Part shown: positions 39,936-55,512 of the stretch, in pieces
How positions within the stretch are numbered: the first letter of the stretch is position 1
Layout of the letters: each line of letters opens with the position of its first letter
Assembly (NCBI GenBank): GCA_947259705.1
Contig: CAMYNL010000013.1
Location: forward strand, 75,073 to 139,072
DNA length: 64,000 nt
Origin: an uncultured Gammaproteobacteria bacterium
GTDB lineage: Bacteria; Pseudomonadota; Gammaproteobacteria; Arenicellales; JAANXG01
Direction of reading: 5' to 3'
Position numbers and translations under genes: made by a program
The notes under the pieces: generated by a model
What the model saw: the letters and a program-made list of their open reading frames with translations, nothing else
Databases searched by the model: none
What the model was told of the DNA's origin: nothing

Positions 39936-40283
39936 ATGACAATAGACTTAGAAGAGTTCGAACGATTGTTACGCCGCCGCCGTGAAGAGATCCTCCATAC
40001 TACCGAGTTGAGGGAGCAGGCGGCGCAGCCGGTGGAGCTTGACCAGTCGCGGGTGGGGCGCCTGTCACGCATGGACGATCTGCAGTCCCAGGCGATTTCG
40101 GTGGCTGCGAAGGAACGGGTCCGCCTCGAACTGGGCCGCATCGGTCAGGCCCTCGACCGTATGCGTAACGGTGAATACGGGCACTGCCTCGAGTGTGGCG
40201 AAGCGATCAGCGTCGGCAGGTTGCGGATAGAGCCCGCTACGCCGCACTGCATCGATTGCGCGCGCAAGCGGGAGAATGTATGA
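39936..40283 (+). CDS. TraR/DksA family C4 zinc-finger protein
   Basis: Coiled N-terminal part plus GHCLECGEAISVGRLRIEPATPHCIDCA. Confidence 0.8.
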   Translation: MTIDLEEFERLLRRRREEILHTTELREQAAQPVELDQSRVGRLSRMDDLQSQAISVAAKERVRLELGRIGQALDRMRNGEYGHCLECGEAISVGRLRIEPATPHCIDCARKRENV

Positions 40284-40311
40284 GACCCGGCCGCGGCCGG
40301 CCCGCACAGGT

Positions 40312-40518
40312 CTAGATGATTCTTACCCGATGCGCCTCGGCGGTTGCCCGATTGTGACTGATGGAGAAGGTGACGCGCTGGCCGCTATGCAGGCTCACAT
40401 CCGGGTCCGCTAAGTCCCGGGAACGCACCAAGATATCGTCACCGCTTTCCGGTCGTATGAAGCCGTAGCCTTTGTCGGGGTCAAACCAGGTGACCCTGCC
40501 GTAGTGCCGGTATGCCAT
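40312..40518 (-). CDS. Cold-shock domain protein (CspA family)
   Basis: GRVTWFDPDKGYGFIRPESGDDILV contains RNP1/RNP2-like motifs. Confidence 0.9.
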   Translation of the reverse strand: MAYRHYGRVTWFDPDKGYGFIRPESGDDILVRSRDLADPDVSLHSGQRVTFSISHNRATAEAHRVRII

Positions 40519-40679
40519 AGTCTCCTCCTTAAGTCTTCGGTTGACGGGTCGGGGCTGATCACCCCTGCGCGAGCGCTAAGTTACTGGCGGTGGTAGCGGC
40601 GGGCAAGGGAAATCGGACGAGCCAGCCTATCCGCTTCCGGACGGGCCGGTGGTGGTAAAGAGACCGAAAATCTGTCTGT

Positions 40680-40770
40680 CATGAGTCTAATGTAATTTAT
40701 CTTTATTATTAGATAACACACTATTATTTATATATATTTATAACAAGTTACGGTCCCGATTTCAGGCACG
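40680..40770 (-). promoter_or_regulatory. Extreme AT-rich island, probable csp promoter/UP element preceding a long 5' UTR
   Basis: About 90 bp at roughly 80% A+T in a ~65% GC genome, 160-250 nt upstream of the csp start. On the minus strand it reads TTGTTA-N17-TAGTGT, a weak -35/-10 candidate. Confidence 0.35.
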
Positions 40771-40827
40771 CGGGCCTAGCCGGGGTGACGCAATGGGGCA
40801 GGCTCCGGCGGTACCGTAAGTTCAGTT

Positions 40828-41316
40828 CTACGCCTCGGCGCTGCAGCGCGCGCAGACGCCGCGGACCTCGATGGTGCGGGTGCGCGGCAAGAAGCCAAGG
40901 CGCTCGGCGTGGCCCTGCAGCGCGTCGATCAGTGAGGGATCAGAGATTTCGGCGATGGCGTCGCAGCGTTCGCAGATAAAGAACTGACCGGCATGCCGGG
41001 CACCGGGATCGGCGCAGCCGACGAAGGCGTTGAGCGACTCGATGCGGTGTATCAGCCCGGCGCGCTCGAGAAAATCGAGTGCCCGATAGGCGGTGGGTGG
41101 CGCCGGTCGGTGTCCCAGCTCCTTGAGTCGTTCCAGGATTTCGTAGGCGCGCGCCGGTGTGTGGCGGTGCCAGACGAGCTCCAGTACTTGCCGGCGCAGC
41201 GGAGTCAGTCGCAGCCCGGCCGCAGCACAGACCTGCTCGGCCGCTTTCAGGGCGTCGTCCAGGCAACGCCGGTGATTGTGTTTACCCCGGAAGGGAGTGA
41301 TGACGCGGCTGCCCAT
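40828..41316 (-). CDS. zur: Fur-family metalloregulator, Zur-like
   Basis: LTPLRRQVLELVW......AYEILERL......PPTAYRALDFLERAGLIHRIESLNAFVGC...H...FFICERC and terminal GVCARC match proteobacterial Zur. Confidence 0.8.
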   Translation of the reverse strand: MGSRVITPFRGKHNHRRCLDDALKAAEQVCAAAGLRLTPLRRQVLELVWHRHTPARAYEILERLKELGHRPAPPTAYRALDFLERAGLIHRIESLNAFVGCADPGARHAGQFFICERCDAIAEISDPSLIDALQGHAERLGFLPRTRTIEVRGVCARCSAEA

Positions 41317-41406
41317 GATTGTCAGGTTCGTTGCAACTGTCGGCGGACATTCTAGCACTGCGACAGCGGCGCTCTCCCCCAGGCCGCGCCCGACGCGCAT
41401 ACACGA

Positions 41407-42711
41407 TCAGCGTTGCTGCAGATAACCCCAGGCCTGCAGACGTTGATAGGCATGCTGGGCTGCCTGGCCCTGATTGACGCTGCGCAGGTAGCGATAATAC
41501 TGCGCCGCCGCGCCACTCCGGTCCTGCATGCTTTCCAGGGCGATGCCCTTGAGAAAGACGGTATTCGGATTTCCCGGCAGCCGCTTTTCATAGCCGTCAA
41601 AGGCGCGGAAGGCCGCCGCATAGCGGCCCCGGGAGAGCTTGCTGATGCCGTCAAAGTGATGGGACTGCGCCTCTGCGGGATAGATTCCCTTCGCCTTCTC
41701 GAAGAACCGTTCCGCCTCGACCGTTCGCTCCTGCGCCAGCAGTGCCTTGCCGAGCAGCATGTTGCCGGTGTAGTCATCCGGCGCGAGTGCTACCGCCTCG
41801 CGTAAGTAGCCTTCAGCCTGCCGGTATTGTTTCCTGGCCATCTTCTGCTCGCCCTCCTGTTGTTTCTTGATCGCCGGCTTCAATTCGCGCAGCGCGGCCA
41901 TATTGTCCTGGAAACGTTCCCGCTGCAGGGGCAGGCGGGCGTCCTCGATATAGCGCGTGGCCACCGCCTGCTGGGCATAGCGGTAGCGTTCGTCGCTGGG
42001 CGGGTGGGTGGCGAACATCAGTTCCAGTGCGTTGGGGTCGCTTTGCCGTTGGCTGCGCAGCACGTCCATCAGGCCAACCATGCCCTCGGGGTTGTAACCG
42101 GCGCGTGTCATATATTCCAGTCCCAGCCTGTCGCTTTCCCGCTCGTTGTCCCGACTGTAATGGGCCAACAGGGCGCCGGCCCCTAGAGAGCCCAGCGTCG
42201 TCACCAGGTTGCCCAGCCCGGCATCCTTGCTTCCGGCGTAGATGCCCCCGCCCATGACCGCCGCCTGGGCGATCATGGTCTTGCCGGCCTGCTCCGCCGC
42301 ATGCCTGGCCGAGACATGACCGACTTCATGGCCAAGCAGCCCCGCCAGCTCTGCCTCGTTTTCCAGATCAACGAGAATCCCGCGGGTGACGCCTATGCTG
42401 CCGCCAGGGAAGGCATAGGCATTGACATGATTGGCGTTCACGGCACGGAACGAGTAGGGCATCTGCGGGCGGTGGGAGTTGGCCGCCAGGCTCTCGCCGA
42501 CGCCGGACAGATAATCGTTCACCGGCGCTTCCTGTACGGCGCCGTAGTCGGCCGAAAACTGATGTGGGGAGTTGCTTCGGTCGAGCTGGATCTCCTGTGC
42601 CTCGCTCATGCCTACGAGCACCGTCTTGCCGGTCACCGGGTCGGTTGCGCAGCCGTGCAGCAGCCCACCGCCGGCGACCGACATCAGCCATAGGAAATCC
42701 CGGCGAGTCAT
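41407..42711 (-). CDS. M48-family metalloprotease with C-terminal TPR repeats (BepA/YfgC-like), lipoprotein
   Basis: RRDFLW...LLHGC leader and lipobox, HEVGHVSARH zinc motif, and a TPR-like C-terminus. Confidence 0.85.
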   Translation of the reverse strand: MTRRDFLWLMSVAGGGLLHGCATDPVTGKTVLVGMSEAQEIQLDRSNSPHQFSADYGAVQEAPVNDYLSGVGESLAANSHRPQMPYSFRAVNANHVNAYAFPGGSIGVTRGILVDLENEAELAGLLGHEVGHVSARHAAEQAGKTMIAQAAVMGGGIYAGSKDAGLGNLVTTLGSLGAGALLAHYSRDNERESDRLGLEYMTRAGYNPEGMVGLMDVLRSQRQSDPNALELMFATHPPSDERYRYAQQAVATRYIEDARLPLQRERFQDNMAALRELKPAIKKQQEGEQKMARKQYRQAEGYLREAVALAPDDYTGNMLLGKALLAQERTVEAERFFEKAKGIYPAEAQSHHFDGISKLSRGRYAAAFRAFDGYEKRLPGNPNTVFLKGIALESMQDRSGAAAQYYRYLRSVNQGQAAQHAYQRLQAWGYLQQR

Positions 42712-42893
42712 AGACCGCCGGAACACCCGGTCCCCCAGCTCATGGGGCATATTCGGGTGTCCCGTTGTTCAACAATTTAGGCATGCTGCAGCGCATGGGA
42801 TTAAGGTTCCATAAGTGCCGGCAAAGTGCAAGGGTGGGGGGTGGTTATCAAGACTACGCAGCCGACGAAGGCGCGATATAATGCGCGGGGAGA

Positions 42894-43097
42894 ATGGATG
42901 GAGAGACCCAAGTGGAGCCACCCGAGATCGTTGATATTGAAGAACACGCCGAGTCCGTGAAATGCGACGGGGGTGAGATCTTTGGCCACCCCATGGTCTA
43001 CCTGACCTTCGGGGACGAGGACAGCGTGGATTGCTACTACTGCGGCCGCCGCTTCGTGCGATTGGTATCGGCGCAAGAGGACACGGATGTCGCGTGA
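42894..43097 (+). CDS. zf-CHCC zinc-finger domain protein
   Basis: [33 protein letters not shown] matches the zf-CHCC family pattern. TATAAT at about 42877 and GGGGAG RBS lie upstream. Confidence 0.7.
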
Positions 43098-43359
43098 GCG
43101 GCGCTCGCGGCCGGCCACCGCGCTCATGCGCGGCCTCGTGAAGGGTTACAAGTGGACCTTGTCGCCGCTGCTGGGTCCGCGCTGCCGCTATCTGCCCACC
43201 TGCGCCGACTATGCGGACGAGGCGCTGCAGCGGCATGGAGCTTTACGAGGCAGCTGGCTGGCCGTCAGGCGGATCGCGCGCTGCCATCCCTGGGGTAGCC
43301 ATGGCTACGACCCGGTGCCGCATAAGACCGCGTCCCGAACACCGGAGTCGCCGACCTGA
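43087..43359 (+). CDS. yidD: Membrane protein insertion efficiency factor YidD
   Basis: [58 protein letters not shown]. Overlaps the upstream gene by 11 nt. Confidence 0.85.
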
Positions 43360-43577
43360 GCGACCGCGCGCCGTTCCTCCGCGCATTTACCCGCCGCCAA
43401 GCACGCCACGCGTCGACGACGCCATCGCCATGCCCAAGGAGAGTCCCGTCGCCAGCCGCCGTGTCGCCGGCCTCTGGGTAGGGCCTTCCATATCTGCTGC
43501 CGGTATACTCAGAAAACGCTGGCCTGGAGCCTCGGGGGCACGGTCCGTACGCAGCAGAATTCACTAAAGATCCTGGC

Positions 43578-44702
43578 ATGAACACCAAGACCGTAACGAC
43601 ATTGGCGCTGATTTTCGCTACCGCCTGTGACACCACGCCGGCCGCCGACCCGGTCGGCTCGCAACAACACCGGTTCAGAGTCGAAGCCGTCGCGGACAAT
43701 CTGAATCATCCCTGGTCAATGGCCTTCCTGCCGGGCGGAGACATGCTGGTCACCGAGCGTCCGGGCCGACTGCGGCTGATCCGGGACGGCCGATTACTGC
43801 GTGAACCGGTCGCCGGAATACCGCCGGTCACGGCCGGTGGACAAGGCGGTTTGCTTGACGTCGCCGTGCATCCCGGGTTTGCGAACAACGGGTTGGTCTA
43901 CCTGTCCTATGCCGCCGCCCGAGACGGGGGTGTGGGCACCGAGGTAGCGCGCGGGGTGCTGGCGGGGGACCGCCTGGATCAGGTCGAGGTCATTTTTCGG
44001 GCGCTGCCCAAGCGGCGCGGCGGCCGGCATTTTGGCTCGCGCCTGCTGTTCGCAGCGGACGGTTCGCTGTTCATCTCGCTGGGTGACCGCGGCCATCGTC
44101 CCAACGGTCAGGACCAGGGCACCCACCCGGGATCGATGATCCGGCTGCGCGACGACGGAAGCGTCCCGGGCGACAATCCCTTCTTCGGCGCTGCGGGTGC
44201 GCGCCCCGAGATCTACAGTTACGGGCACCGTAATGTCCAGGGCATGGCGCTGCGGCCCGGCACCAACGAGATCTGGACCCACGAGCACGGACCCCAGGGC
44301 GGCGACGAGTTGAACCTGCTGCTCCCGGGCCGCAATTACGGCTGGGCCCAGATCACCTACGGCGCCAACTACGGTACGGGCACCGACATCGGAACAGGCA
44401 CCCACCAGGCAGGCATGGAGCAGCCGGCATGGTACTGGGTGCCGTCCATAGCCCCGTCGGGCATGGCATTTTATATTGGCGATCGCTTTCCTCGCTGGCG
44501 CGGAAACATCCTGCTTGGCGCACTCAAGTACCAGATGTTGGTGCGGCTGGAAGTCAGCGACGGCAAGGTACTCCACGAGGAACGAATGCTGAAAGAGAAG
44601 TTCGGGCGTATACGCGACGTCCGGGTGGGTCCGGACGGACTGGTCTACCTGTTGACCGACGAGAGCGACGGCGCGCTGCTGCGGCTGGTGCCGGCGGATT
44701 GA
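43578..44702 (+). CDS. PQQ-dependent soluble sugar (aldose/sorbosone) dehydrogenase, lipoprotein
   Basis: Lipobox IFATAC, then LNHPWSMAFLPGGDMLVTERPGRLRLI, HFGSRLLF and YSYGHRNVQG, typical of the YliI/Asd family. Confidence 0.85.
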   Translation: MNTKTVTTLALIFATACDTTPAADPVGSQQHRFRVEAVADNLNHPWSMAFLPGGDMLVTERPGRLRLIRDGRLLREPVAGIPPVTAGGQGGLLDVAVHPGFANNGLVYLSYAAARDGGVGTEVARGVLAGDRLDQVEVIFRALPKRRGGRHFGSRLLFAADGSLFISLGDRGHRPNGQDQGTHPGSMIRLRDDGSVPGDNPFFGAAGARPEIYSYGHRNVQGMALRPGTNEIWTHEHGPQGGDELNLLLPGRNYGWAQITYGANYGTGTDIGTGTHQAGMEQPAWYWVPSIAPSGMAFYIGDRFPRWRGNILLGALKYQMLVRLEVSDGKVLHEERMLKEKFGRIRDVRVGPDGLVYLLTDESDGALLRLVPAD

Positions 44703-44720
44703 ACGGCGGCTGGCGGCGGT

Positions 44721-45077
44721 ACTCCACTTCGTTCTCGCATACGGCGCCGCGGGAAACAGGGGTCGTTGCGGGTGCCGACCTCGTTCATCGACAAGGCCTG
44801 GCGTCCGTGTTTCACAAGGTCTTCAATTTGTTTTCGCGATCCATTCGCAGCAGGCGGTGCGCTAGCTCACGGAATAGCAGGTCGAGAGGAGAGTGAGAAC
44901 GTGGTCAGTTTCGCACTGGTGGAATTCAACCCGCTGGTCGATCCGACGTATGTCTCCGCCATCAATGCCAACCGCATAGTCCGCGAGTGCCTCACCGGCA
45001 TCGCGATGCGCAAGATGGTCCTCACCGACAAGTATCACCTGAGCCCACTGACAACTGACCACGGCCGACGCAGATAG
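44721..45077 (+). pseudogene. Ureohydrolase (arginase/agmatinase/formimidoylglutamase family) 3' remnant with frameshift
   Basis: One frame gives FSHTAPRETGVVAGADLVHRQGL (compare D.A.APGTGTP..GGLT.R..L). Another gives NVVSFALVEFNPLVDPTYVSAINANRIVRECL (compare vv.fDvvEv.P..D..g.Ta.lAa.l..e.l). The N-terminal ~180 aa are absent. Confidence 0.5.
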
Positions 45078-45294
45078 AGCGGGATCGCGGCGGGGAGCGC
45101 CGGGACATGGGACGGCCGGCCTTTCCCTCCGAACGCTCGCGGTGGTTTCGCCGCATGGGCCGTCCTGTGCCCGCAACGAACGGTGCTCCCGGGTCAGGTA
45201 AATTTTCGCTCAGGCGATGGCGCGGCTCGCGCCCGGCCGGCGCCACAGGCGTGATACAGTTGCGCATCCCGAATCTGGACCCGGTCGAACAAAA

Positions 45295-46497
45295 GTGACG
45301 AACCAGCCCTCTTCGCGCGCCACGGTTGTGTTCTCCTGCCTGGGACACCTGCTGATCCACCTGTGCACCGCGTTTTACTTCGTCATCGTGCTGGCGCTGG
45401 AGAAGGACTGGAGCCTCCCGTACCACGAACTGATCGGTCTGTGGACCCTGGGCGCCCTGATGGTGGGCGCCGCCGCCCTGCCCGCCGGCATGCTCAGCGA
45501 CCGCGTCGGCGCGCCGGTGATGATGGTGATGTTCTTCATCGGCATGGGGGTGTGCTCGGTGGGGGCTGGCCTGTCCGAGGGCAAGGTCGATCTATTGCTG
45601 TGGCTGACCGGCATCGGCATTTTCGCGGCCATCTATCATCCGGTGGGCATACCCTGGCTGGTGCGCAACGCGGGTGATGCCAAGGGCAAGGCCCTGGGTT
45701 TCAACGGCATCTTCGGTTCGCTGGGGGCGGCATCGGCGGGCATCACCGCCGGCCTGTTTATCGACCTGGTCAACTGGCGGGCGGCTTTCGTGGTGCCCGG
45801 GTTGATCTGTGTCGTGACTGGCATTGCGTTGTGGCTCTTCGTGCTGCGTGGCCGGGTGACGGACGCCCCGGCCAGCACCGAGGTCCGCAAGACCAGCGGC
45901 CGGGAGATGGCACGGGTGTTTGGCATCCTGCTGGTCACGATGTTCATGGCCGGCATGATCTTCAACAGCACCCAGACCGCGCTGCCGAAGGTGTTCGCGG
46001 TGCGCATCGACGGCTTCATCGGCGACGGGGCGCTGGGGGTGGGTCTGCTGGTGGCGCTGGTCTATGGCGCGGCTGGCGTCATGCAGGTGATCGGGGGTCA
46101 CATGGCCGACCGTTTCCCCGCCAAGTACGTCTACATTGCCGCGATCTGCCTGCAGGTGCCGCTGCTGTTCCTCGCCGCCGGCGCCGGGGGCTTTGCACTG
46201 GTGGTGGTGGCGACGCTGATGGTAGTAGCCAACGTGGGCGCGCTGCCGGCCGAGAACATGCTGCTCGCGCGTTACGCGCCGCCGCACAGACATGGGCTGG
46301 TGTTCGGGCTGAAGTTCGTCCTCGCCTTCGGCGCCGGGCCGCTGGCGGTACAGCTGGTGTCCCTGATACAGGGCAGGACCGGAGAGTTCTACTGGCTGTT
46401 CGTGGCGCTGTCGCTGTTTGCGGCGAGCGCGTTGGCGGCGGCGTTGCTGCTGCCCGCGGACCGGATGGAGGCGGTGGTATCGAAAGTCAGCGCCTGA
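45295..46497 (+). CDS. MFS transporter
   Basis: 12 TM segments and MFS loop motif (GMLSDRVGAP). Start is uncertain (ORF opens at 45217). Confidence 0.8.
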   Translation: MTNQPSSRATVVFSCLGHLLIHLCTAFYFVIVLALEKDWSLPYHELIGLWTLGALMVGAAALPAGMLSDRVGAPVMMVMFFIGMGVCSVGAGLSEGKVDLLLWLTGIGIFAAIYHPVGIPWLVRNAGDAKGKALGFNGIFGSLGAASAGITAGLFIDLVNWRAAFVVPGLICVVTGIALWLFVLRGRVTDAPASTEVRKTSGREMARVFGILLVTMFMAGMIFNSTQTALPKVFAVRIDGFIGDGALGVGLLVALVYGAAGVMQVIGGHMADRFPAKYVYIAAICLQVPLLFLAAGAGGFALVVVATLMVVANVGALPAENMLLARYAPPHRHGLVFGLKFVLAFGAGPLAVQLVSLIQGRTGEFYWLFVALSLFAASALAAALLLPADRMEAVVSKVSA

Positions 46498-46595
46498 GGG
46501 CGTTCTCCTGTCGGTGCACAAAGTTTCAGGGGATCCGCGCATCGGTTACAGTAGCACGATGACGAAAACGGGAGCCGAGGCCCACCGGCGGATGC

Positions 46596-48197
46596 GTGGG
46601 CCCGGCGCCGGCGATGCTTAGTCCGTCGGCAAGGTGTTTCAAATGTTCCGGCGACACTGACAGCAGCCGCCTGCGATCCCGGCTGGCGGGACATTTCGAT
46701 ATGGTCAGCGAGGGTGGGGGAGCGCTGCGTTTGACTTTCTACGATAGCTTCGACTGGCGGCTGCACCGCGCCGGTCTCAGCCTCCGTCTGGAGCAGCCGT
46801 CGCGGCGTCCGGCCAAACTCTGCTGTGCCCGGCAGGGGACCGGCGAGGAAGACTGCCAAGACGTGGCTGCTGTGCCCAGGTTCGCTGACGACCTGCCGGC
46901 AGGACGGCTGCGGACGCGGCTGCAGCAGGTAGGCGGGATCCGCGCCCTGTTGCCGCTGGTGACGTTGCGCGGGTGGCGCTATCGGTACGCGGTGCGCAAC
47001 GAGGACGGCAAGATGGTCGCACGTTGTTATCTCGAGCAGTGGCGGCCGGCCAGTCGGCGCTACGCCGGGTCAGCCCCGGTGGGTCTGGTGCGGCTGGAGC
47101 CGCTGCGCGGATACGAGGTGGATACCGCGGCGGTCGCTGAGCTGCTGCGCGGGGAGGAGCTGGAACGGACCGGTATCGACCTGTTGCAGACGGCCCTGGA
47201 GCTGGTCGGCCGCGTGGCGGACGATTATTCTTCCAAGTTGGACGTCAAGCTGCAACCGGAAGAGGATGCGGTGGTGGCGGTGAGGCGCTTGCTGCGCAGC
47301 CAGGTCGATGTCATGCGCGCCAATGAGGCAGGCATACGGCATGACCTGGATTCGGAATTCCTGCACGACTTTCGGGTCGCGGTGCGTCGCACCCGCTCAG
47401 CGCTGTCTCAGATCAAGGGTATCTTTGCCGAACCGGCGCTGGCCCCGTTCCGCGACGGATTTGCCTGGCTGGGGGCGGTCACCGGGCCCAAACGCGACCT
47501 GGATGTGCACCTGCTGCAGTTTCCCGAGCAGCAACGGCTGCTGGCGCCAGGGCAGTCTGCCGACCTGCTTCCGCTGCGGCTGCTGCTCGAGCAACAGCAG
47601 GCGGCTGCGGGGGCAGAGGTGGTCGCGGCCCTGAAGAGCGCGCGCTATCGCCGGCTGATGCGGTACTGGCAGACCTTTCTTGACCAGGGCGGAACCGAGT
47701 TCGATGGGGCGAATGCGAGGCAGCCGGCGGCGGGGGTGGCGAACAGTCGCATCTGGCGCGTGTACCGGCGGGTACGCCGCGAGGGTCGCGCCATCAGCGC
47801 TGACTCACCGCCGGCGGACCTGCACGAACTTCGCAAGAGCTGCAAGAAACTGCGCTACTTGATGGAGTTTTTTCAGAGCCTGTATCCGCGCAACAAGATG
47901 CGACGCGCCATCTCCCACCTCAAGGACCTGCAGGAGAACCTGGGTCAATATCAGGACCAGACGGTACAGCTGGCAAACCTGCGCAGGCACAGCGAGGAAC
48001 TGGCGGCGCGAGGGGGCGAAATTCCGGTGCCGACGCTGCTGGCGATTGGCGCCCTGATGGACCGGATCGCCGGGGCACATCAGCAAACCCGCGCCGGCTT
48101 TGCGCGCCGTTTTGCTGCCTTCTATACGCCGGCCAATCATCGTCTGTTCAGGGAGTTGTTCCACACCAGGGGGCCATCGATGGCAGACCAGCCGTGA
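46596..48197 (+). CDS. CHAD domain protein with degenerate CYTH-like N-terminal domain
   Basis: Central-to-C-terminal CHAD helices (FLHDFRVAVRRTRSALS, LHELRKSCKKLRYLMEFF, LQENLGQYQD). The N-terminal ~200 aa is a beta-rich CYTH-like region (LRLTFYDSFDWRLHRAGLSLRLE) in which I see no ExExK motif. Start is uncertain. Confidence 0.8.
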   Translation: MGPAPAMLSPSARCFKCSGDTDSSRLRSRLAGHFDMVSEGGGALRLTFYDSFDWRLHRAGLSLRLEQPSRRPAKLCCARQGTGEEDCQDVAAVPRFADDLPAGRLRTRLQQVGGIRALLPLVTLRGWRYRYAVRNEDGKMVARCYLEQWRPASRRYAGSAPVGLVRLEPLRGYEVDTAAVAELLRGEELERTGIDLLQTALELVGRVADDYSSKLDVKLQPEEDAVVAVRRLLRSQVDVMRANEAGIRHDLDSEFLHDFRVAVRRTRSALSQIKGIFAEPALAPFRDGFAWLGAVTGPKRDLDVHLLQFPEQQRLLAPGQSADLLPLRLLLEQQQAAAGAEVVAALKSARYRRLMRYWQTFLDQGGTEFDGANARQPAAGVANSRIWRVYRRVRREGRAISADSPPADLHELRKSCKKLRYLMEFFQSLYPRNKMRRAISHLKDLQENLGQYQDQTVQLANLRRHSEELAARGGEIPVPTLLAIGALMDRIAGAHQQTRAGFARRFAAFYTPANHRLFRELFHTRGPSMADQP

Positions 48198-48961
48198 AAA
48201 CCATCGCCATCTACAGTATCAAGGGCGGCGTCGGGAAGACCGCGGCGGCGGTCAACCTGGCCTATCTTTGCGCCCAGGACGGCGCCCGCACCCTGCTCTG
48301 GGACCTGGACCCTCAGGGCGCCGCGTCGTTCTACTACCGGGTGAAGGCGAAGGTCAAGGGGGGCGCCCGGGGGCTGCTGCAACGCAACGGAGAACTGCCT
48401 GGTCGTATCAAGGCCACCGACTTTCCCAACCTCGACTTGCTACCCGCCGATCTTTCCTATCGCCACATGGACCTGTTGCTCGATGAATCGAAAAAGAGAA
48501 AACGCGCATTCGGCCGCTTACTGGAACCCCTTACCGACGACTACGACTACATCTTCATGGATTGTGCGCCGAGCGTGACCCTGGTGTCGGAGAATGTCTT
48601 TCGTGCCGCCGACCTGATCATCAGCCCGGTGATACCGACAACGCTGTCGGTGCGGACATTGAACCAGTTGTCCGCTTTTATGGAACATCCCAAGCTCCGC
48701 GATGTGCGGGTAATGAGCTTTTTCTCCATGGTGGACGGGCGCAGAAAACTGCACCGCGAGATCATGGAGAATCTGTCGCAGCGCCGCAAAGGCATCCTGC
48801 GGAGCTATATTCCGTATTCCAGCGACGTTGAGCGGATGGGGATACGGCGTGCGCCACTGCCCGAATTCGCCGGCCGCAGCGCGGGCGGGCATGCCTTCAG
48901 GCTGCTGTGGCGGGAAATCAAGGCCCGGATAGAAGACGGTGGCGACGGAAATAGAGCGTAA
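48194..48961 (+). CDS. ParA/MinD-family P-loop ATPase
   Basis: Deviant Walker A IYSIKGGVGKTAAAVNLA, LLWDLDPQGAAS and Walker B IFMDCAPS. Its GTG overlaps the CHAD gene stop (GTGA). Confidence 0.9.
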   Translation: MKTIAIYSIKGGVGKTAAAVNLAYLCAQDGARTLLWDLDPQGAASFYYRVKAKVKGGARGLLQRNGELPGRIKATDFPNLDLLPADLSYRHMDLLLDESKKRKRAFGRLLEPLTDDYDYIFMDCAPSVTLVSENVFRAADLIISPVIPTTLSVRTLNQLSAFMEHPKLRDVRVMSFFSMVDGRRKLHREIMENLSQRRKGILRSYIPYSSDVERMGIRRAPLPEFAGRSAGGHAFRLLWREIKARIEDGGDGNRA

Positions 48962-49409
48962 ATTCCTCGTCGTGGGCGAGCACTGGAGAGACCAGGCGTC
49001 GCGCAGTGAGCGCTACCGCCAGGGATATCTTGCGGTCAACGAGCACTGCGGGGTGCGGGTGCGCATGGCGGGGAAATCGGCGACCTTGAACGTCAAGAGC
49101 GCGGGCCTGGATATCTGTCGGCAGGAATTCGAATATGCAATACCGCCCGGGGACGCACGGGCCATGCTAGACCAACTGTGTGGTGGCATGGAGCTCAGCA
49201 AGACGCGGTACATCATCAGGCATGCAGGGCATACCTGGGAGGTGGACGAATTCGACGGCGCCAATGCAGGACTGGTGCTCGCGGAGATCGAATTGCGGAC
49301 CGCGGATGAACAGTTCGCGCGGCCGGATTGGCTGGGGGAAGAGGTGTCGGGTGACGCACGTTACCTGAATTCCAACCTGGTTCGGAACCCATACCGTCAA
49401 TGGCGGTGA
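48939..49409 (+). CDS. Stand-alone CYTH (triphosphate tunnel metalloenzyme) protein
   Basis: N-terminal EIERKFLV is the catalytic ExExK motif, within a ~155 aa CYTH fold. Its GTG start overlaps the ParA gene by 23 nt. Confidence 0.85.
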   Translation: MATEIERKFLVVGEHWRDQASRSERYRQGYLAVNEHCGVRVRMAGKSATLNVKSAGLDICRQEFEYAIPPGDARAMLDQLCGGMELSKTRYIIRHAGHTWEVDEFDGANAGLVLAEIELRTADEQFARPDWLGEEVSGDARYLNSNLVRNPYRQWR

Positions 49410-49577
49410 CGCGTGCCACCGATCGGCGAGGGAGTTTTGAATCAGCGTCGAAGGCCTTAAAATATCGCAGCCGGGCGGGGACCGCCGCGGTTATCGTCGA
49501 CTGGACCTTGTTGCAGGGACGACAAACAAGAACTTTCGCGATGAGCGCCGGTGGTGCACGCTGGCGGGAGTAACCTG

Positions 49578-50222
49578 ATGAGCTACGAGAATCTTCGCGG
49601 AGCCCGATTCCTGGGCGCGTACGCATTACCATTGTTGCTGTTGTCGGGCGCGGCCGCGCACGCCACGCCCGGGGGGTTCTACCTCGGCGGCTCGATTGGT
49701 CAGGCCGAACTGTCGGATCTCGGTGAACTCGAAACCGCCTGTGTTGTCGCCGGTGTCCAATGCGTGACCGACGACAGTGATACCGCGTATCGGATCTTCG
49801 CCGGCTACCAGTTCGGGGGTTACTTTGCCCTCGAAGGCGGTTATGTGAATCTCGGTGAACAGCAGACCGGCGTAGATGCGCCCGTACTGGCTGATGCGTC
49901 GCTGGAGACCAATGGCGGTTTTCTGGCCCTGTTGCCGCAGTTCCCCGTCGGACAGCTCGGCGCCGTCTATGGCCGGCTGGGACTCTACGTCGGGGACGCG
50001 ACCCTTACCGCGCGGGTGCCTGCGTTCGGGTTCGACGAGAGTGACGGTGGCACGGTGGCGGGGGTGTCGTTCGGATTCGGAGGTGCCCTTAACTTCGGCC
50101 GTGTCTCCGTCCGTGTCGAGTGGGAGCGGTTCAGTTTCGACGAGGCATTCACCATCGCCGGGGAGGACATCGATGCGCCGGACCTCGACGTCATAACCGG
50201 GAGCGCTCTGGTGCGCTTCTGA
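49578..50222 (+). CDS. Outer-membrane beta-barrel (OmpA-N / porin-like) protein
   Basis: Signal peptide ending AAHA, alternating beta-strand pattern with YRIFAGYQF and GGYVNLG, and a C-terminal ...ALVRF with terminal Phe. Confidence 0.75.
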   Translation: MSYENLRGARFLGAYALPLLLLSGAAAHATPGGFYLGGSIGQAELSDLGELETACVVAGVQCVTDDSDTAYRIFAGYQFGGYFALEGGYVNLGEQQTGVDAPVLADASLETNGGFLALLPQFPVGQLGAVYGRLGLYVGDATLTARVPAFGFDESDGGTVAGVSFGFGGALNFGRVSVRVEWERFSFDEAFTIAGEDIDAPDLDVITGSALVRF

Positions 50223-50429
50223 CCCCGCTGCCGGTCGCCCGGCACGCTGGCTGGTCCGGCCGCATGGCAGTGCCCGCTGCCCCGACGCGCGGGAGGTGCG
50301 AGTGTGCCGTGGCGGTGGGGTATCGCCCGGGCATACGTGGGCCGCGCAATGCCGCTACAATAGCGCTTCCGAGCGGCCCACACGCCGCGTCCACCATGTT
50401 CAAAACCGTATACGTACTGGCAGGTTCCG

Positions 50430-53400
50430 TTGGCCATTCATGTCGCTATCCATCACCAGACCGAGTACCGGTATGACCGGCTGATAAAACTGTCGCCGCA
50501 GGTGATGCGCCTGCGTCCGGCGCCCCACAGTCGCACCCCGATTATTTCCTACTCTCTGAAGGTGGAACCCGCGGACCACTTCGTGAACTGGCAGCAGGAC
50601 CCGTTCGGTAACTTCGTCGCCCGCTTCGTGTTCCCCGAACGCACCCGGGCCCTGCGCATAGACGTGGACCTGGTGGCCGACATGACGGTCATCAATCCTT
50701 TTGATTTCTTCATCGAGGAATACGCCGAGACGATGCCTTTCCGGTACGAGGCGCAGCTCGCGCGCGAGCTGGCGCCGTACCTGGAGATCCGCGAGCGCGG
50801 TCCGCTGCTGCAGCAGTGGCTGGGCGCCACGGACCGCAGCGAGCAGCACGTAGTGGATTTTCTGGTCGCACTCAATCAGAGACTGCAGGGAGACATCGGC
50901 TATCTGATCCGCATGGAACCCGGCGTACAGAGCTGCGAGCACACGCTCGAGTCCAGTTCCGGATCTTGTCGTGATTCGGCCTGGCTGCTGGTGCAGATAC
51001 TTCGCCACCTGGGTCTGGCTGCCCGCTTCGTCTCCGGTTATCTGGTTCAGTTGACCGCTGACGTCAAGGCGCTTGACGGGCCCTCGGGACCGGAACAGGA
51101 CTTCACGGACCTACACGCCTGGGCGGAGGTCTACGTGCCGGGCGCCGGCTGGCTGGGACTGGATCCGACCTCCGGTCTGTTCGCCGGCGAGGGCCACATC
51201 CCGCTTGCCTGTACGCCGGATCCATCCGGTGCCGCGCCCATCACCGGGGCCGGCGATCCCTGCGAGGTGGAGTTCTACTTTCACAACCGCGTCACCCGGA
51301 TACACGAAGACCCGCGGGTCACCAAGCCTTACCGGGAGGAGCAGTGGCGGGCGATCGACGAGCGGGGCGCCGCGGTGGATGCAGATCTGCAGCAGGCAGA
51401 CGTGCGCCTGACCATGGGTGGTGAGCCGACCTTCGTTTCCATCGATGACATGGAGGGTGCCGAGTGGAACACCGCCGCCCTCGGTGACGACAAACGACAC
51501 CTGGCAGGGAAGCTCTTCGACCGGTTGTGCGCGTGTTTCGCACCGGGCGGACTGCCACAGTTCGGGCAGGGCAAATGGTATCCGGGGGAACCGCTGCCGC
51601 GCTGGGCCATGTCGTGCTACTGGCGGGAGGACGGCGTTCCACTGTGGAACGACCCGCGCTGGCTGGGCCGCCCGGCCGCAGCCGGTGTTGGCAGTGGAAT
51701 CGATGAAGCCGAGCGAATGCTGCGCGCCATTGCCGCGCAGCTTGACCTCAGCGAACGCTTTGTGATCCCGGCCTACGAAGACCCGGCTCATCAGCTATGG
51801 AACGAGGGCAACTTGCCGGTCAATCTCGATCCCACCAGGGCAGGTCTCACGGATTCCCTGGAACGGCGCCGGCTGGCACGGCTGCTGGAACAGGGGTTGG
51901 ACCGGCCGGCAGGCCTGGTACTGCCGCTCAAGTATCGCGATCGATGGATGAGCAGCCGCTGGCCGCTGCGCCGCGAGCATTTGTACCTCATCCCCGGCGA
52001 TTCGCCGCTGGGCCTGCGCCTGCCGCTGGACAGTCTGCCGTGGCTGGCGCCGGCGGCGCGCGAGCTGGTGCCGGAGACCGACACCTTCGCGGTGCGCGAC
52101 CCGCTGCCGGTACCCCACGCCGATGCGGCGCCACATCGGCCGGCGCAAGAGCCTGCGCATGAACCGCCGCCGCCGGCCGAGGTGGTGCACACCGCGGTCT
52201 GCGTGGAGCCCCGCGGCGGCTGTCTGTACGTGTTCCTGCCGCCGTTGCAGGAGCTGGAGGAATTCGTAGCCCTGGTGGGTGCCGTCGAAGCCGCGGCCAG
52301 GGAGCAGCAGTTGGCGGTGGTGCTGGAAGGCTACCCGCCGCCCGCCGATACGCGCTTGAAAAGGTTTTCCATCACCCCTGATCCGGGGGTAATCGAGGTC
52401 AACGTGCAACCGGCGGCAAGCTGGCGCGAACTGGTGGAGAACACGCGGGTGCTCTATCGGGAGGCGCGCGAGAGCAGGCTGGGCACCGAGAAGTTCATGC
52501 TGGACGGCCGCCACACCGGCACCGGCGGCGGCAACCACGTGACGCTGGGCGGGCCGACCGCCGCGGACAGCCCCCTGCTCAGGCGGCCCCACCTGCTGCG
52601 TTCACTGGTTACCTACTGGCAGCACCATCCGGCGCTGTCCTACCTGTTCTCCGGGGCCTTCATCGGCCCCACCAGCCAGGCACCCCGGGTCGACGAGGCC
52701 CGCGACGACAACCTCTATGAACTGGAAATCGCCTTTCAGCAGCTGCCGGCCGGGGACTGCGATCACCCCTGGCTGGTTGACCGGGTGCTGCGCAATCTGC
52801 TGGTGGACCTGAGTGGAAACACCCATCGTACCGAGTTCTGCATCGACAAGCTCTATTCGCCCGACGGTCCGTCGGGGCGCCTGGGGCTGCTGGAGTTCCG
52901 TGCCTTTGAGATGCCGCCGCATTGGCAGATGAGCGCAGTGCAGATGCTGCTGCTGCGGGCACTGGTGGCGCTATTCTGGGGCTCACCGTATCACCATGAC
53001 CTGATTCGCTGGGGCACGGAACTGCACGATCGCTTCATGCTGCCTCACTACGTTGCGTCAGACCTGCGCGAGGTGGTGGCGGATCTGCAGGGCAAGGGGT
53101 TAGATTTTTCGCACGGCTGGTTCGCGCCGTTTCTGGAATTCCGCTTCCCGGTTTACGGTCGGATCACCGCCATGGATATGGAACTGGAGCTGCGCTATGC
53201 GCTGGAGCCCTGGCACGTGCTGGGCGAGGAGGTGAGCGCGCAGGGCACGTCGCGCTTCGTCGACTCCTCGCTGGAGCGCCTGCAGGTGCGTGTCAACGGC
53301 ATGGTGCCGGATCGCTATGTGGTGGCCTGCAACGGCCGCCGGGTGCCGTTGCGGCCGACCGATCGCGAGGGCGAGTACGTGGCGGGGGTCCGTTACAAGG

Positions 53401-53684
53401 CCTGGCGCCCGTCCTCGGGACTGCATCCCACCATCGACGTGCATGCGCCGCTGGTGTTCGATATCGTGGACGCCCGCAACCAACGGTCCGTGGGTGGCTG
53501 TACCTATCACGTGGCGCATCCGGGCGGGCGCAACTACGAGACCTTCCCGGTCAACGCCAACGAGGCGGAGGCGCGCCGGGTGGCCCGGTTTTGGAACCAT
53601 GGGCACACCCCGGGGCGGATGGCGGTGCCGGAGGACCGGCCGCCCGCTGACCATCCATATACCCTGGACCTGCGGCGTGGTTGA
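50430..53684 (+). CDS. Large transglutaminase-family protein (Bact_transglu_N + transglutaminase core + DUF2126)
   Basis: IHVAIHHQTEYRYDRLIKLSPQVMRLRP N-domain and catalytic Cys region GSCRDSAWLLVQILRHLGLAARFVSGY. A ~750 aa DUF2126-type extension follows. The apparent start is TTG. Confidence 0.9.
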   Translation: MAIHVAIHHQTEYRYDRLIKLSPQVMRLRPAPHSRTPIISYSLKVEPADHFVNWQQDPFGNFVARFVFPERTRALRIDVDLVADMTVINPFDFFIEEYAETMPFRYEAQLARELAPYLEIRERGPLLQQWLGATDRSEQHVVDFLVALNQRLQGDIGYLIRMEPGVQSCEHTLESSSGSCRDSAWLLVQILRHLGLAARFVSGYLVQLTADVKALDGPSGPEQDFTDLHAWAEVYVPGAGWLGLDPTSGLFAGEGHIPLACTPDPSGAAPITGAGDPCEVEFYFHNRVTRIHEDPRVTKPYREEQWRAIDERGAAVDADLQQADVRLTMGGEPTFVSIDDMEGAEWNTAALGDDKRHLAGKLFDRLCACFAPGGLPQFGQGKWYPGEPLPRWAMSCYWREDGVPLWNDPRWLGRPAAAGVGSGIDEAERMLRAIAAQLDLSERFVIPAYEDPAHQLWNEGNLPVNLDPTRAGLTDSLERRRLARLLEQGLDRPAGLVLPLKYRDRWMSSRWPLRREHLYLIPGDSPLGLRLPLDSLPWLAPAARELVPETDTFAVRDPLPVPHADAAPHRPAQEPAHEPPPPAEVVHTAVCVEPRGGCLYVFLPPLQELEEFVALVGAVEAAAREQQLAVVLEGYPPPADTRLKRFSITPDPGVIEVNVQPAASWRELVENTRVLYREARESRLGTEKFMLDGRHTGTGGGNHVTLGGPTAADSPLLRRPHLLRSLVTYWQHHPALSYLFSGAFIGPTSQAPRVDEARDDNLYELEIAFQQLPAGDCDHPWLVDRVLRNLLVDLSGNTHRTEFCIDKLYSPDGPSGRLGLLEFRAFEMPPHWQMSAVQMLLLRALVALFWGSPYHHDLIRWGTELHDRFMLPHYVASDLREVVADLQGKGLDFSHGWFAPFLEFRFPVYGRITAMDMELELRYALEPWHVLGEEVSAQGTSRFVDSSLERLQVRVNGMVPDRYVVACNGRRVPLRPTDREGEYVAGVRYKAWRPSSGLHPTIDVHAPLVFDIVDARNQRSVGGCTYHVAHPGGRNYETFPVNANEAEARRVARFWNHGHTPGRMAVPEDRPPADHPYTLDLRRG

Positions 53685-53771
53685 GCCCGAAATACGCGGC
53701 GGCGGGAGTTGTATAGGCGGCCGCGAATGTGTTGTAAACTTATCAGAGTTTGGGGAGTGGAATCTGCCTTT

Positions 53772-54527
53772 ATGACGTACTGCGTCGCTATCACCGTAAA
53801 CCGGGGTCTGGTCTTCGCCTCGGATTCGCGCACCAATGCGGGTGTCGACCAGCTCAGCACCTATAGCAAGATGTTCACCATCTGCGTTCCCGGGCAGCGC
53901 GCGTTCGTGGTACTGACGGCCGGCAACCTGGGTACCACGCAGGCGGTCATCAACCGGGTGAGGGCGGATATCAAGAAGGGCGCGCCGACCAGCCTGCACA
54001 CCGTCGAAAGCATGTCCGAGGCCGCGGAATACGTCGGCGAAATCAGCCTCAACCGGCAGCACAAGACCACCGGTGTCTCCGCGGGCCAGCTGGATTCCAG
54101 CGCCAGTTTCATCCTTGGCGGCCAGATCCGCGACCGCAATCCAAAGGTGATGATGATCTATCCGGAAGGGAACTTCATCGTCGCCACGCGGGAAACCCAG
54201 TACCTGCAGATAGGCGAAGTGAAATACGGCAAGCCCGTCCTCGACCGCATCATCACGCCGGAAACCAGCCTGGAAGAGGCCGCGCTTTGCGCCATGGTCT
54301 CGATGGACTCCACGATGCGCTCAAATGCCACGGTCGGCCCGCCGGTGGAGGTACTGATATACGAGAAAGACAGCTTCCAGCTGGACCAGCATTTCACCTT
54401 CGGTACCGACGATCCTTATCTTTTGGATCTCAAGCTGGCCTGGGATCGCAAAATCAAGGAGGCCTTCTCGGAACTCACACGGTTCAACTGGCAGCGCGCC
54501 GAACGCCGGCGAGCCGAAGGTGAATGA
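53772..54527 (+). CDS. Anbu (ancestral beta-subunit) proteasome-type peptidase
   Basis: MTYCVAITVNRGLVFASDSRTNAGVDQLSTYSKMF: Thr directly after the initiator Met, in an Ntn-hydrolase proteasome beta fold. Confidence 0.9.
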   Translation: MTYCVAITVNRGLVFASDSRTNAGVDQLSTYSKMFTICVPGQRAFVVLTAGNLGTTQAVINRVRADIKKGAPTSLHTVESMSEAAEYVGEISLNRQHKTTGVSAGQLDSSASFILGGQIRDRNPKVMMIYPEGNFIVATRETQYLQIGEVKYGKPVLDRIITPETSLEEAALCAMVSMDSTMRSNATVGPPVEVLIYEKDSFQLDQHFTFGTDDPYLLDLKLAWDRKIKEAFSELTRFNWQRAERRRAEGE

Positions 54528-55512
54528 AACGCAGTTTCTCCGTCACGACGTCGTTGATAACGAAGGGGTAGGCGTCACGCAGCCCCATGCTGCGGTTGAG
54601 TTCGTTTAACACCACGGCGAAGCGCCGCCAATCGTCCATCCAGGTTTCGACAAGGAAGGGCTCGTCGTCCAGTCGTATCAGCTCATGTGCCGCCGCCGTC
54701 TGCAGACAATCCGTAATGTGCAGGTAATGCGCCCAGGTCTCGGCCCAGTCCTCGTGGGGGTGGGCGGCGGCGTAGGCGCTCAAGTGGCGGTCGCGCCAGT
54801 CCGCAGCCGGCCCGGAGCCGTAATACCCTTCCAGGGCCGCGTCGTAATCGCTACGTTCGTCGCCGAATAACGAGCGAAACGCGTTCAGCGCGTCATCGTC
54901 GTTGATCAGGTAGTCGAAGTAGTAGTGCCCGCTCTCGTGCCGCAGATGGCCTAGCAGAGTACGGTACTGCTCGTTCATGTGCTTGCGGGCCATTGCCCGC
55001 AGTACGTCGTCGGCCTCGGTGACGTTGATGGTGATGATTCCGCCCTCGTGGCCAGTCACCACCCGTTCTTCCTCGACCGCCGGGTTGCCGCGACGGTCTT
55101 CGATGAAGTCGAACGCCAGGCCGAAGGGCCAGCCGCGGGCCTTGCTCTGAATGGGCAGCCCCAGTTCCAGCAGCGAAAACAACAACCTGCGTTTCGCCAC
55201 CTCCAGGCTGTTCCAGTATTCTTGGTTGGCCGGCGCAGTCAGGTTGGGGATGGTGCGGTTCAGGCGGCACGAGACGCAATACGCGTCGCGATCCTCGACC
55301 GTGACCAGCCAGTTGCAGTTGGAGAAATCGAGTCGGTTCTTGCAGTGGCGGAACCGGCGCCCGGCACTATCCGCCAGTACCCCGCCGTCAATCGTTAGCA
55401 GGGAGAGCAGATTGCGGGTGGCGGGGTCGAAACCGATCGTGGTGCCGCAGGCGAGGCATTCAGTGTTCTCGAAGAAGATTTGTTCGCCGCAGCGACAGCT
55501 AAACCGCTTCAT
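54484..55512 (-). CDS. Putative zinc-binding metallopeptidase with N-terminal zinc ribbon
   Basis: MKRFSCRCGEQIFFENTECLACG zinc ribbon and an HESGH (HExxH) motif. Its start overlaps the alpha-E gene end by 14 nt. Confidence 0.85.
   Translation of the reverse strand: MKRFSCRCGEQIFFENTECLACGTTIGFDPATRNLLSLLTIDGGVLADSAGRRFRHCKNRLDFSNCNWLVTVEDRDAYCVSCRLNRTIPNLTAPANQEYWNSLEVAKRRLLFSLLELGLPIQSKARGWPFGLAFDFIEDRRGNPAVEEERVVTGHEGGIITINVTEADDVLRAMARKHMNEQYRTLLGHLRHESGHYYFDYLINDDDALNAFRSLFGDERSDYDAALEGYYGSGPAADWRDRHLSAYAAAHPHEDWAETWAHYLHITDCLQTAAAHELIRLDDEPFLVETWMDDWRRFAVVLNELNRSMGLRDAYPFVINDVVTEKLRFIHLRLAGVRRAAS

Follow-up and report, generated by a model that had tools for sequence, protein, structure and literature searches.

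A CHAD–ParA gene pair found across phyla is a candidate ATPase module acting on polyphosphate granules

We analyzed a 64,000-nucleotide stretch of DNA (the window) from contig CAMYNL010000013.1 of an uncultured gammaproteobacterium, focusing on an operon of three genes. Gene 1 encodes a CHAD protein, gene 2 a ParA-type ATPase, and gene 3 a small CYTH enzyme (Table 1). A sequence-only reading of the window had taken the three together as a module for handling polyphosphate (polyP) granules, with the ParA as its motor. Our comparisons narrow that proposal: the CHAD-ParA pair is a real, widespread, and uncharacterized ATPase module with a link to polyP, to which the CYTH gene is an optional addition. 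The best reading of the pair, to which the sequence evidence gives slightly better than an even chance, is a ParA-driven system that acts on polyP granules via the CHAD protein. Positioning of the granules is our leading hypothesis for the module, not a demonstrated function.

Gene neighborhoods tie the two genes together whichever one is used as the seed. Starting from the ParA and taking one genome per species (26 loci), we found a full-length gene 1 homolog directly upstream in all 13 informative loci with a ParA at least 43% identical to gene 2. These 13 loci belong to Gammaproteobacteria, Geobacteraceae, Acidobacteriota, “Deltaproteobacteria,” Chlorobium, and Desulfocapsaceae. ParAs at 30 to 42% identity, from Sphingomonadales, Clostridia, and others, had no CHAD neighbor. 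A metagenome scan seeded with gene 1 returned 80 loci at 38 to 47% identity, 74 of them with room downstream; ParA follows directly on the same strand in 67 of the 74 and lies elsewhere in the locus in 2 more. With start codons picked by a heuristic, 40 of the 67 reconstructed pairs overlap, about 35 of the 67 by the same 4 nucleotides. The pair is also present in Endoriftia, on a 4.68-Mb contig, and in Paracoccus. In the window itself, the packing of the three genes and both of the overlaps described earlier were confirmed from the sequence.

The ParAs of these pairs also keep to themselves phylogenetically. In a crude neighbor-joining tree, all 74 CHAD-linked ParAs fall into one clade, apart from Soj, plasmid ParA, McdA, and MinD, and the unlinked ParAs (from Sphingomonadales, a Marinobacter plasmid, and Clostridia) fall outside it. 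The earlier proposal depended on this separation from partition ParAs, and it holds. Judged by gene order and sequence, CHAD-ParA is a cross-phylum pair, translationally coupled and with its own ParA clade, and is not a product of local chance. Chlorobaculum tepidum probably has the pair as well, by family membership.

A search of 72,556 plasmids found only about eleven records with a protein 38 to 46% identical to gene 2, and the Paracoccus plasmid records that we inspected again carry CHAD-ParA. Ordinary plasmid ParAs reach at most about 31% identity, and on this ground we rejected plasmid partition as a reading for the family. Over its first 40 kb, the Paracoccus replicon showed no rep or par genes, and in the annotated neighborhoods of relatives no ParB or centromere was seen, except for a small gene for a ribbon-helix-helix (RHH)-like protein in Paracoccus. 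At the operon in the window, we found neither a ParB-type gene, among the flanking genes scanned, nor centromere repeats of the kind that defines ParABS. The ParA of Pontibacter sp. G13 (L114, 54 to 794; L117) is 46% identical to gene 2 and lies at the record start of a 93-kb plasmid; it may have been re-used as a plasmid ParA.

The triad did not prove to be the conserved unit. The CHAD-ParA link is real and lies among polyP and phosphate genes, as the idea of a polyP module requires, but a CYTH gene occurs anywhere in the locus in only 6 of the 80 metagenome loci. In Thiohalophilus and Ectothiorhodospira, orthologs of gene 3 (59% identity) are surrounded by unrelated housekeeping genes, and for this reason we rejected them as constant companions of the ParA. 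The gene that follows ParA varies: it encodes a helix-hairpin-helix (HhH)/poly-Lys protein in 20 loci, PstS in 4, CYTH in 4, PPK2 in 2, and a SixA-like phosphatase in 2, with the rest inconsistent. Because the CYTH gene is present in few loci, its close orthologs are found elsewhere, and the third gene varies, the conserved unit is the CHAD-ParA pair and the triad is a lineage variant. Examples of the variant include Paracoccus aestuarii and P. marcusii, with the order CHAD-ParA-CYTH-NUDIX (L113 and L118), and three loci with the order ParA-CYTH (L007, L008, and L054).

Gene 3 itself is the minimal CYTH protein with an EIERK motif that it had been taken for. Pfam CYTH matches it with an E value of 8.6e-18 (65.2 bits against a cutoff of 23.2), and alignment with Nitrosomonas NE1496 (2FBL/3TYP; E value, 2e-15) brings the ExExK, RxR, K, KxR, and ExE positions into register. 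The ExERKF signature is kept in all nine CHAD/ParA-associated homologs that we collected, as EIERKF in eight and ETERKF in one. We predict that gene 3 encodes a stand-alone CYTH enzyme of the NeuTTM type, an inorganic triphosphatase. In the closest complete relative, a gene for a polyhydroxybutyrate (PHB)-depolymerase-type esterase lies directly after the CYTH gene (L029, 11194 to 12291), and P. aestuarii has a second such gene about 8 kb away from its cluster (L116, 37689 to 38750). Such neighbors may point to a connection of PHB inclusions with polyP inclusions.

The product of gene 1 has two domains, and the C-terminal one is a CHAD domain by both profile and fold. Pfam CHAD covers residues 232 to 462 with an E value of 3.6e-60 (204 bits against a cutoff of 25.6), and phmmer matches the domain to the CHAD protein of Chlorobium tepidum (CtCHAD; 3E0S/6QV7) with an E value of 1.4e-47. 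An AlphaFold2 model built with 65 homologs (predicted local distance difference test [pLDDT], 94.1; predicted template modeling score [pTM], 0.91) shows the two four-helix bundles of the CHAD fold, and Foldseek places the domain at a template modeling (TM) score of 0.93 to the CtCHAD-polyP complex 6QVA and 0.93 to 0.95 across CtCHAD structures. CtCHAD binds polyP and oligomerizes on it, contacting the polymer through H253, R256, R260, and R296 (PMC6537752). All 65 aligned sequences keep the corresponding residues of gene 1, H257, R260, R264, and R300, without variation. Among all loci, the best match to CtCHAD is a ParA-linked Chlorobium gene, at 52% identity, and the structurally proven polyP binder therefore belongs to the gene 1 family.

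The N-terminal domain is related to the triphosphate tunnel metalloenzymes (TTMs), and this kinship is visible by predicted fold only, because profile comparison found nothing: Pfam gave no match, CYTH included, for the N-terminal 200 amino acids, and hhalign against the CYTH family of gene 3 reached a probability of just 0.14. By structure, Foldseek matched the N-terminal 170 to 200 residues with probability 1.0 to full-length YgiF (5A60), AtTTM3, BH2851, thiamine triphosphatase, and SaTTM; the model has the beta-barrel tunnel fold, with target-normalized TM scores of 0.56 to 0.63 to TTM enzymes. ExExK is absent from the N-terminal domains of gene 1 and 24 relatives (25 sequences), which agrees with what the sequence-only reading had said of this domain. 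The motifs conserved in the domain are YDSFDWRL, PRFA.DLP.G.LR, and EMRALLP. We therefore regard the domain as a predicted pseudoenzyme, a modeled TTM fold without the catalytic signature. A search with it returned 1,351 clusters (50% identity) at E values of 1e-3 or below, mostly of 505 to 560 amino acids among the 150 listed, so that the pseudo-TTM–CHAD architecture forms a large family. The start of gene 1 is GTG 46596 or ATG 46614. The public gene call, P0133 (498 amino acids), starts at ATG 46701 and loses about 35 residues (46596 to 46700), which in the model should remove the strand and helix with which the TTM domain begins. Either of the two upstream codons is the better start, because homologs align to residues 2 to 35 of the longer open reading frame (ORF).

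Gene 2 belongs to the ParA/MinD family by motif and by fold. The deviant Walker A reported earlier, SIKGGVGKT, is present, Pfam AAA_31 matches with an E value of 2e-33, and CbiA matches as well. The signature K10, the P-loop K15 and T16, D37 and D39 of Walker A', and D123 of Walker B are conserved in 119 of 119 family members, which points to an intact ATP switch. The AlphaFold2 model (pLDDT, 88.9) has the SIMIBI ParA fold, with Foldseek TM scores of 0.88 to 0.89 to Soj and ATP-bound ParA and target TM scores of 0.72 to 0.82 to McdA, MinD, and FleN (0.78 to 0.82 for McdA, 6NON/6NOP). At residues 251 to 255 the pLDDT values fall under 50, and the family shows no conservation of the last residues. 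Within the ParA/MinD family, gene 2 stays below every NCBIfam equivalog cutoff considered (ParA_partition, RepA, SopA, MinD, and BcsQ), scoring 77.6 against 180 for ParA_partition, 58.8 against 348 for RepA, and 46.7 against 725 for SopA. Assignment to MinD fails by a wide margin (TIGR01968, 34.1 against a cutoff of 212.9), and the flanking genes that were scanned have no MinC or MinE domain. Searches with a profile of the clade give 315 to 460 bits within the family, 124 bits to chromosomal ParA (8RAY), 94 to TtSoj, 88 to HpSoj, 40 to FleN, and about 51 to 55 to MinD, P1 ParA, and McdA (McdA, 51). Identity is 55 to 80% within the CHAD-linked family and about 26 to 30% to 8RAY and Soj.

The clade is also marked by its charge. 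Net charge averages +7.2 over the CHAD-linked ParAs and ranges up to +20, with gene 2 of the window at +12; the comparators are −7 for the 8RAY fragment, −2 for the TtSoj fragment, and −6 to +1 for most outgroups. The family also has a loop of its own, with R49, K51, K53, and K55 basic in 100, 94, 96, and 89% of 119 sequences. The loop lies between helices 40–45 and 57–62 at lower pLDDT in the model, and 8RAY and TtSoj have no run of basic residues in the stretch aligned to it. Because the clade is so unusually basic and carries this R49-x-K-x-K-x-K loop, the ParA probably still binds a polyanion, either DNA or polyP.

The company that the pair keeps across genomes is rich in polyP and phosphate genes. 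PPK1 is nearby in L005, L006, L009, L015, and L029; PPK2 in L004, L008, and Endoriftia; Ppx/GppA in L005 and L008; and a SixA-like histidine phosphatase in L011, L012, and L015. A large clade has the order CNNM, CHAD, ParA, small HhH protein, PstS-like, PhoU. Natural fusions join active CYTH to pseudo-TTM and CHAD (P0449, 740 amino acids) and His_Phos_1 to pseudo-TTM and CHAD (P0397, 693 amino acids). A further protein, P0073 (402 amino acids), joins a truncated pseudo-TTM fragment to ParA; we judged its locus degenerate and rejected it as evidence of interaction. Upstream of the pair in the tubeworm symbiont “Candidatus Endoriftia” (L027) are a sulfur-globule-protein gene (Pfam SGP, 6833 to 7141), folD, a pyrophosphate-dependent phosphoenolpyruvate carboxykinase gene, and PPK2.

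Small Lys-rich proteins recur in the same neighborhoods. Directly after ParA in L002 (5940 to 6371), L003 (4264 to 4584), L016 (5935 to 6213), and about 20 metagenome loci is a gene for an HhH (HHH_5) protein with a C-terminal poly-Lys/Asp tail, with PstS-like and PhoU genes after it and CNNM upstream. In Paracoccus, a 62-amino-acid RHH-like protein with a Lys-rich N-terminal tail is encoded by a gene that overlaps the CHAD start by 4 nucleotides (L113, 4299 to 4487; L118, 2288 to 2476). Its architecture is ParG-like, and its matches to RHH_1 (E value, 0.0035) and ParG (E value, 0.047) are both below threshold. In the lineages that carry them, the HhH/poly-Lys and RHH-like proteins could act as the stimulatory or tethering partner that is otherwise missing; no Lys-rich small DNA-binding protein is evident in the window.

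These pieces can be assembled into a proposed mechanism. Gene 1 would be a phosin: because its CHAD domain is predicted to bind polyP, the protein should sit on polyP granules. Gene 2 would be a private ParA-clade ATPase, produced in step with gene 1 through the overlapping codons. ATP-bound ParA dimers would hold on to a polyanionic matrix, most likely the nucleoid and possibly polyP itself, engage the granule via the CHAD protein, and be freed by ATP hydrolysis. The outcome would be granules that are spaced, kept apart, or inherited, much as McdAB does with carboxysomes and ParABS with DNA. In the lineage of the window, the module would have gained an active NeuTTM-like triphosphatase (gene 3) and a major facilitator superfamily (MFS) transporter; other lineages fill that position with PPK2, with a SixA-like phosphatase, or with a small protein that binds DNA and carries a poly-lysine tail. 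The sequences and models show what the domains are, that the polyP contacts and ATPase motifs are kept, that the genes are linked across phyla among polyP genes, and that the ParA clade is separate. The granule localization of gene 1, the ParA-CHAD contact, the identity of the matrix, and the positioning output are what we infer here. A ParA-type polyP-granule system is the most economical explanation because it accounts at once for the linkage, for a private clade with its ATP switch intact, and for a partner of the polyP-binding kind. As in McdAB, an ATPase gene stands beside the gene for a cargo-associated partner, and it does so in the 67 of 74 and 13 of 13 loci above; in sister lineages, the HhH/poly-Lys and RHH-like proteins would supply a link to the nucleoid.

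Several observations weigh against this mechanism. Five of the 74 CHAD-family loci lack any ParA, and the Pontibacter plasmid ParA lies inside the CHAD-linked clade without a CHAD neighbor. ParA/MinD-family proteins also serve as regulators or assembly factors and not as positioners, as FlhG and BcsQ do. Partners of ParA/MinD ATPases are reported to contact the ATPase via a positively charged, disordered N terminus (PMC10241942), and none was found on the CHAD partner: averaged over 119 CHAD-family proteins, the first 30 amino acids carry a net charge of −0.5, reaching +3 or more in only 10%, and the N terminus of gene 1 is modeled as a structured strand. Lys-rich tails are present only on the separate small proteins of some lineages. 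The DNA-binding patch of Soj, formed in TtSoj by R182, R194, R208, and R211 (PMC6393308), is largely gone. The positions of R194, R208, and R211 are basic in only 2, 0, and 0% of the gene 2 family, the last of them being Asp or Glu in 92%, and the equivalent of R182 alone is kept (R183, 99% Arg). Because three of the four patch residues are lost, nucleoid binding of the Soj kind is not supported, a result that rests on alignment and leaves room for other DNA-binding surfaces. Spacing of polyP in Synechococcus elongatus needs no ParA-family protein (PMC13556221), and the proposed mechanism therefore cannot be universal. In sum, the linkage, the separate clade, and the polyP context support the system proposed from sequence, and the partner peptide and Soj DNA patch of a classical ParA system were not found.

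The lost patch and the absent basic peptide would both be expected if gene 2 instead used its ATP switch to regulate or help assemble polyP granules or polyP enzymes, working through CHAD on nucleation, number, size, or recruitment of PPK/PPX, in the way that FlhG or BcsQ act on their partners, with no transport along a matrix. This explanation shares the linkage and the polyP context with the granule-positioning one. It can also point to enzymes (PPK2, SixA-like, and CYTH) as the commonest functionally defined third genes, some of them fused to CHAD, and to BcsQ (target TM score, 0.83), which is structurally as close to gene 2 as McdA is. We consider it unlikely, since by sequence and fold gene 2 is nearest to the chromosome-segregating ParA/Soj, its positive charge and conserved basic loop suggest that it binds the surface of an extended polyanion, and small DNA-binding proteins with Lys-rich tails recur in the module.

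The same charge pattern could be read differently: in its ATP state, the ParA might bind polyP and not DNA, coating or remodeling granules so that they do not fuse or are handed over between cell halves, with CHAD as stimulator or recruiter. The basic clade set against negative Soj/ParA references, the three lost Soj contacts with one turned acidic, the new invariant loop, and the oligomerization of CtCHAD on polyP (PMC6537752) all fit. We nonetheless judge this version improbable, because it is drawn purely from charge and residue patterns, pNOB8 ParA binds DNA through residues other than those of Soj (PMC6393308), and the HhH and RHH-like proteins of sister modules point to DNA. Highly improbable, in our view, is a nucleotide or triphosphate signaling or metabolic unit in which CYTH-CHAD is a polyP-regulated adenylate cyclase or triphosphatase and the ParA an unrelated partition gene nearby. 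Such labels are in use: PMC6416229 calls the Acidithiobacillus CYTH-CHAD protein an adenylate cyclase and its neighbor “chromosome partitioning protein ParA,” RefSeq attaches the Gene Ontology term “chromosome segregation” to the Paracoccus gene, and the Paracoccus cluster lies on extrachromosomal replicons with the ParG-like small protein before CHAD. Yet gene 1 is unlikely to act as a cyclase or triphosphatase, because its N-terminal domain lacks ExExK and is not recognizable as CYTH by sequence. Linkage at this frequency across phyla, with 4-nucleotide overlaps, cannot be coincidence. No ParB or parS-like repeats lie at the operon, the low identity of typical plasmid ParAs holds here too, and the window and several relatives look chromosomal (relatives' contigs of 3.6 to 4.7 Mb; ribonucleotide reductase synteny). 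A ParA-driven system on polyP granules thus remains our preferred reading.

In the window, the MFS gene upstream of gene 1 gave only weak, sub-cutoff NCBIfam matches, to anion/organophosphate MFS families. It also stands directly before gene 1 in two relatives, with the order MFS-CHAD-ParA-CYTH (L029 and L112), and is possibly a lineage-specific upstream member of the unit. The flanking genes scanned (about 43.5 to 53.7 kb) encode a glucose/sorbosone dehydrogenase (GSDH), the MFS protein, an outer-membrane beta-barrel, and DUF2126/transglutaminase; no ParB, MinC/E, or flagellar domains were found among them. We rejected a centromere or RNA element, as there are no repeat arrays in 44700 to 50450 and no Rfam matches in 40000 to 54000, and also anti-phage defense, for which PADLOC gave one partial P-loop match only. 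A promoter and terminator scan gave counts not above those of shuffled sequence, and tblastn found no polyP enzyme genes across the whole window. The earlier statement that no partition, Min, or flagellar genes lie nearby thus holds for the scanned flanks, with one amendment: a second ParA/MinD-family gene, of the MipZ family (Pfam PF09140; E value, 1e-104), lies 21 kb upstream on the plus strand (26625 to 27512), between a LOG/lysine-decarboxylase-like gene and hisG. Relatives of the window are labeled Gammaproteobacteria (e.g., Thiohalophilus, Ectothiorhodospira, Sedimenticola, and Thiogranum). The stretch immediately downstream of the operon, 50430 to 57794, encodes DUF2126/transglutaminase, a proteasome-type subunit, a Peptidase_Mx/zinc-ribbon protein, and a circularly permuted ATP-grasp protein.

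Table 1. Positions in the window of the operon, its domains and motifs, and the adjacent transporter gene
Feature	Position	Strand	Basis or remark
MFS transporter gene	45217-46497	+	Pfam MFS_1, E value 1.5e-30; 98 nucleotides before gene 1
Gene 1, CHAD protein	46596-48197	+	ORF of 533 amino acids
N-terminal TTM/CYTH-fold domain, predicted pseudoenzyme	46596-47210	+	No ExExK; fold matches
CHAD domain, predicted polyP binder	47229-48161	+	Pfam CHAD and CtCHAD match
GTGA overlap of genes 1 and 2	48194-48197	+	Gene 2 GTG start on gene 1 TGA stop, 4 nucleotides
Gene 2, ParA-type ATPase	48194-48961	+	ORF of 255 amino acids
Deviant Walker A SIKGGVGKT	48215-48241	+	Signature Lys10, P-loop Lys15/Thr16
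Family-specific basic loop R49-x-K51-x-K53-x-K55	48338-48358	+	Conservation, model
Overlap of genes 2 and 3, 23 nucleotides	48939-48961	+	Gene 3 GTG start 48939, gene 2 TAA stop 48959-48961
Gene 3, CYTH enzyme	48939-49409	+	ORF of 156 amino acids
EIERK motif of gene 3	48948-48962	+	Sequence

How bacteria space and inherit polyP granules is an open question, and the CHAD-ParA module offers a concrete two-gene handle on it. The module extends across several phyla and into cultured organisms, namely P. aestuarii and P. marcusii here and Acidithiobacillus according to the literature, and polyP binding by a family member is already known at atomic resolution. Papers on Acidithiobacillus draw a conserved folD-ppk-parA-CHAD cluster and label its ParA a plasmid/chromosome partition protein without comment (PMC6416229, PMC10892726). 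In the full-text literature searched (open papers, to mid-2026), we came across no account of polyP granules served by a ParA-type system, in line with what the sequence-only reading had supposed. A multi-cargo ParA/MinD study and a 2024 review make no mention of polyP or CHAD, and a 2026 study from a ParA-focused laboratory describes the mechanism of polyP localization as undefined and as ParA independent in Synechococcus (PMC13556221). If our reading is true, the ParA/MinD family would gain cargo of a new class and a partner of a new architecture, and many genes now annotated “AAA family ATPase,” “BcsQ,” or “chromosome partitioning protein” would gain a function, with relevance to polyP-accumulating bacteria in phosphorus removal and biomining. 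A bolder version falls just short of an even chance in our estimate: that this would be the first ParA/MinD-type system with an inorganic polymer granule as cargo, with a folded, non-peptide pseudo-TTM/CHAD partner and a basic ParA clade that has swapped the Soj patch for a Lys/Arg loop and maybe reads polyP as its matrix, in at least five to six phyla.

Among known systems, McdAB offers a close parallel in layout: a ParA/MinD ATPase gene lies beside the gene for a binder of a non-DNA cytoplasmic inclusion, with no ParB or centromere, and the ATPases share intact Walker A, A', and B motifs and a fold. The two differ in that the gene 2 clade is much closer by profile to chromosomal ParA than to McdA, the candidate partner is large, folds into two domains, and has no basic disordered N terminus, the cargo would be an inorganic polymer granule, and the order is partner then ATPase with a 4-nucleotide overlap. 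By profile and fold, the closest family to gene 2 is the chromosomal ParA/Soj of ParABS, which has the same size and the DCPPS-type Walker B. Gene 2 departs from it in its low identity, its score below the ParA_partition cutoff, the absence of ParB/parS, and the loss of three of four basic residues for nonspecific DNA binding, as well as in a net charge that is strongly positive where Soj/ParA are negative.

For the partner, the phosins (CtCHAD, Ralstonia PptA, and E. coli YgiF) are the relevant comparison. The CHAD domain of gene 1 is close to that of CtCHAD, the polyP-contact residues are kept, and the TTM+CHAD order is that of YgiF. In E. coli, ygiF presumably has no ParA neighbor, and the gene 1 subfamily is defined by its downstream ParA. 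The TTM domain of YgiF is an active triphosphatase (PMC6537752), in contrast to that of gene 1 without ExExK. For gene 3, the counterpart is NeuTTM (NE1496), an inorganic triphosphatase; both are single-domain CYTH proteins with aligned catalytic positions, and what differs is the lineage-limited association of gene 3 with CHAD-ParA. Finally, the histone H1-like AlgP of Pseudomonas aeruginosa is needed for even spacing of polyP granules and is so far the only protein tied to their spacing (PMC9239181). AlgP is not an ATPase system and has no homolog in the module of the window, but the HhH/poly-Lys proteins of sister modules resemble it in pairing DNA affinity with a Lys-rich tail.

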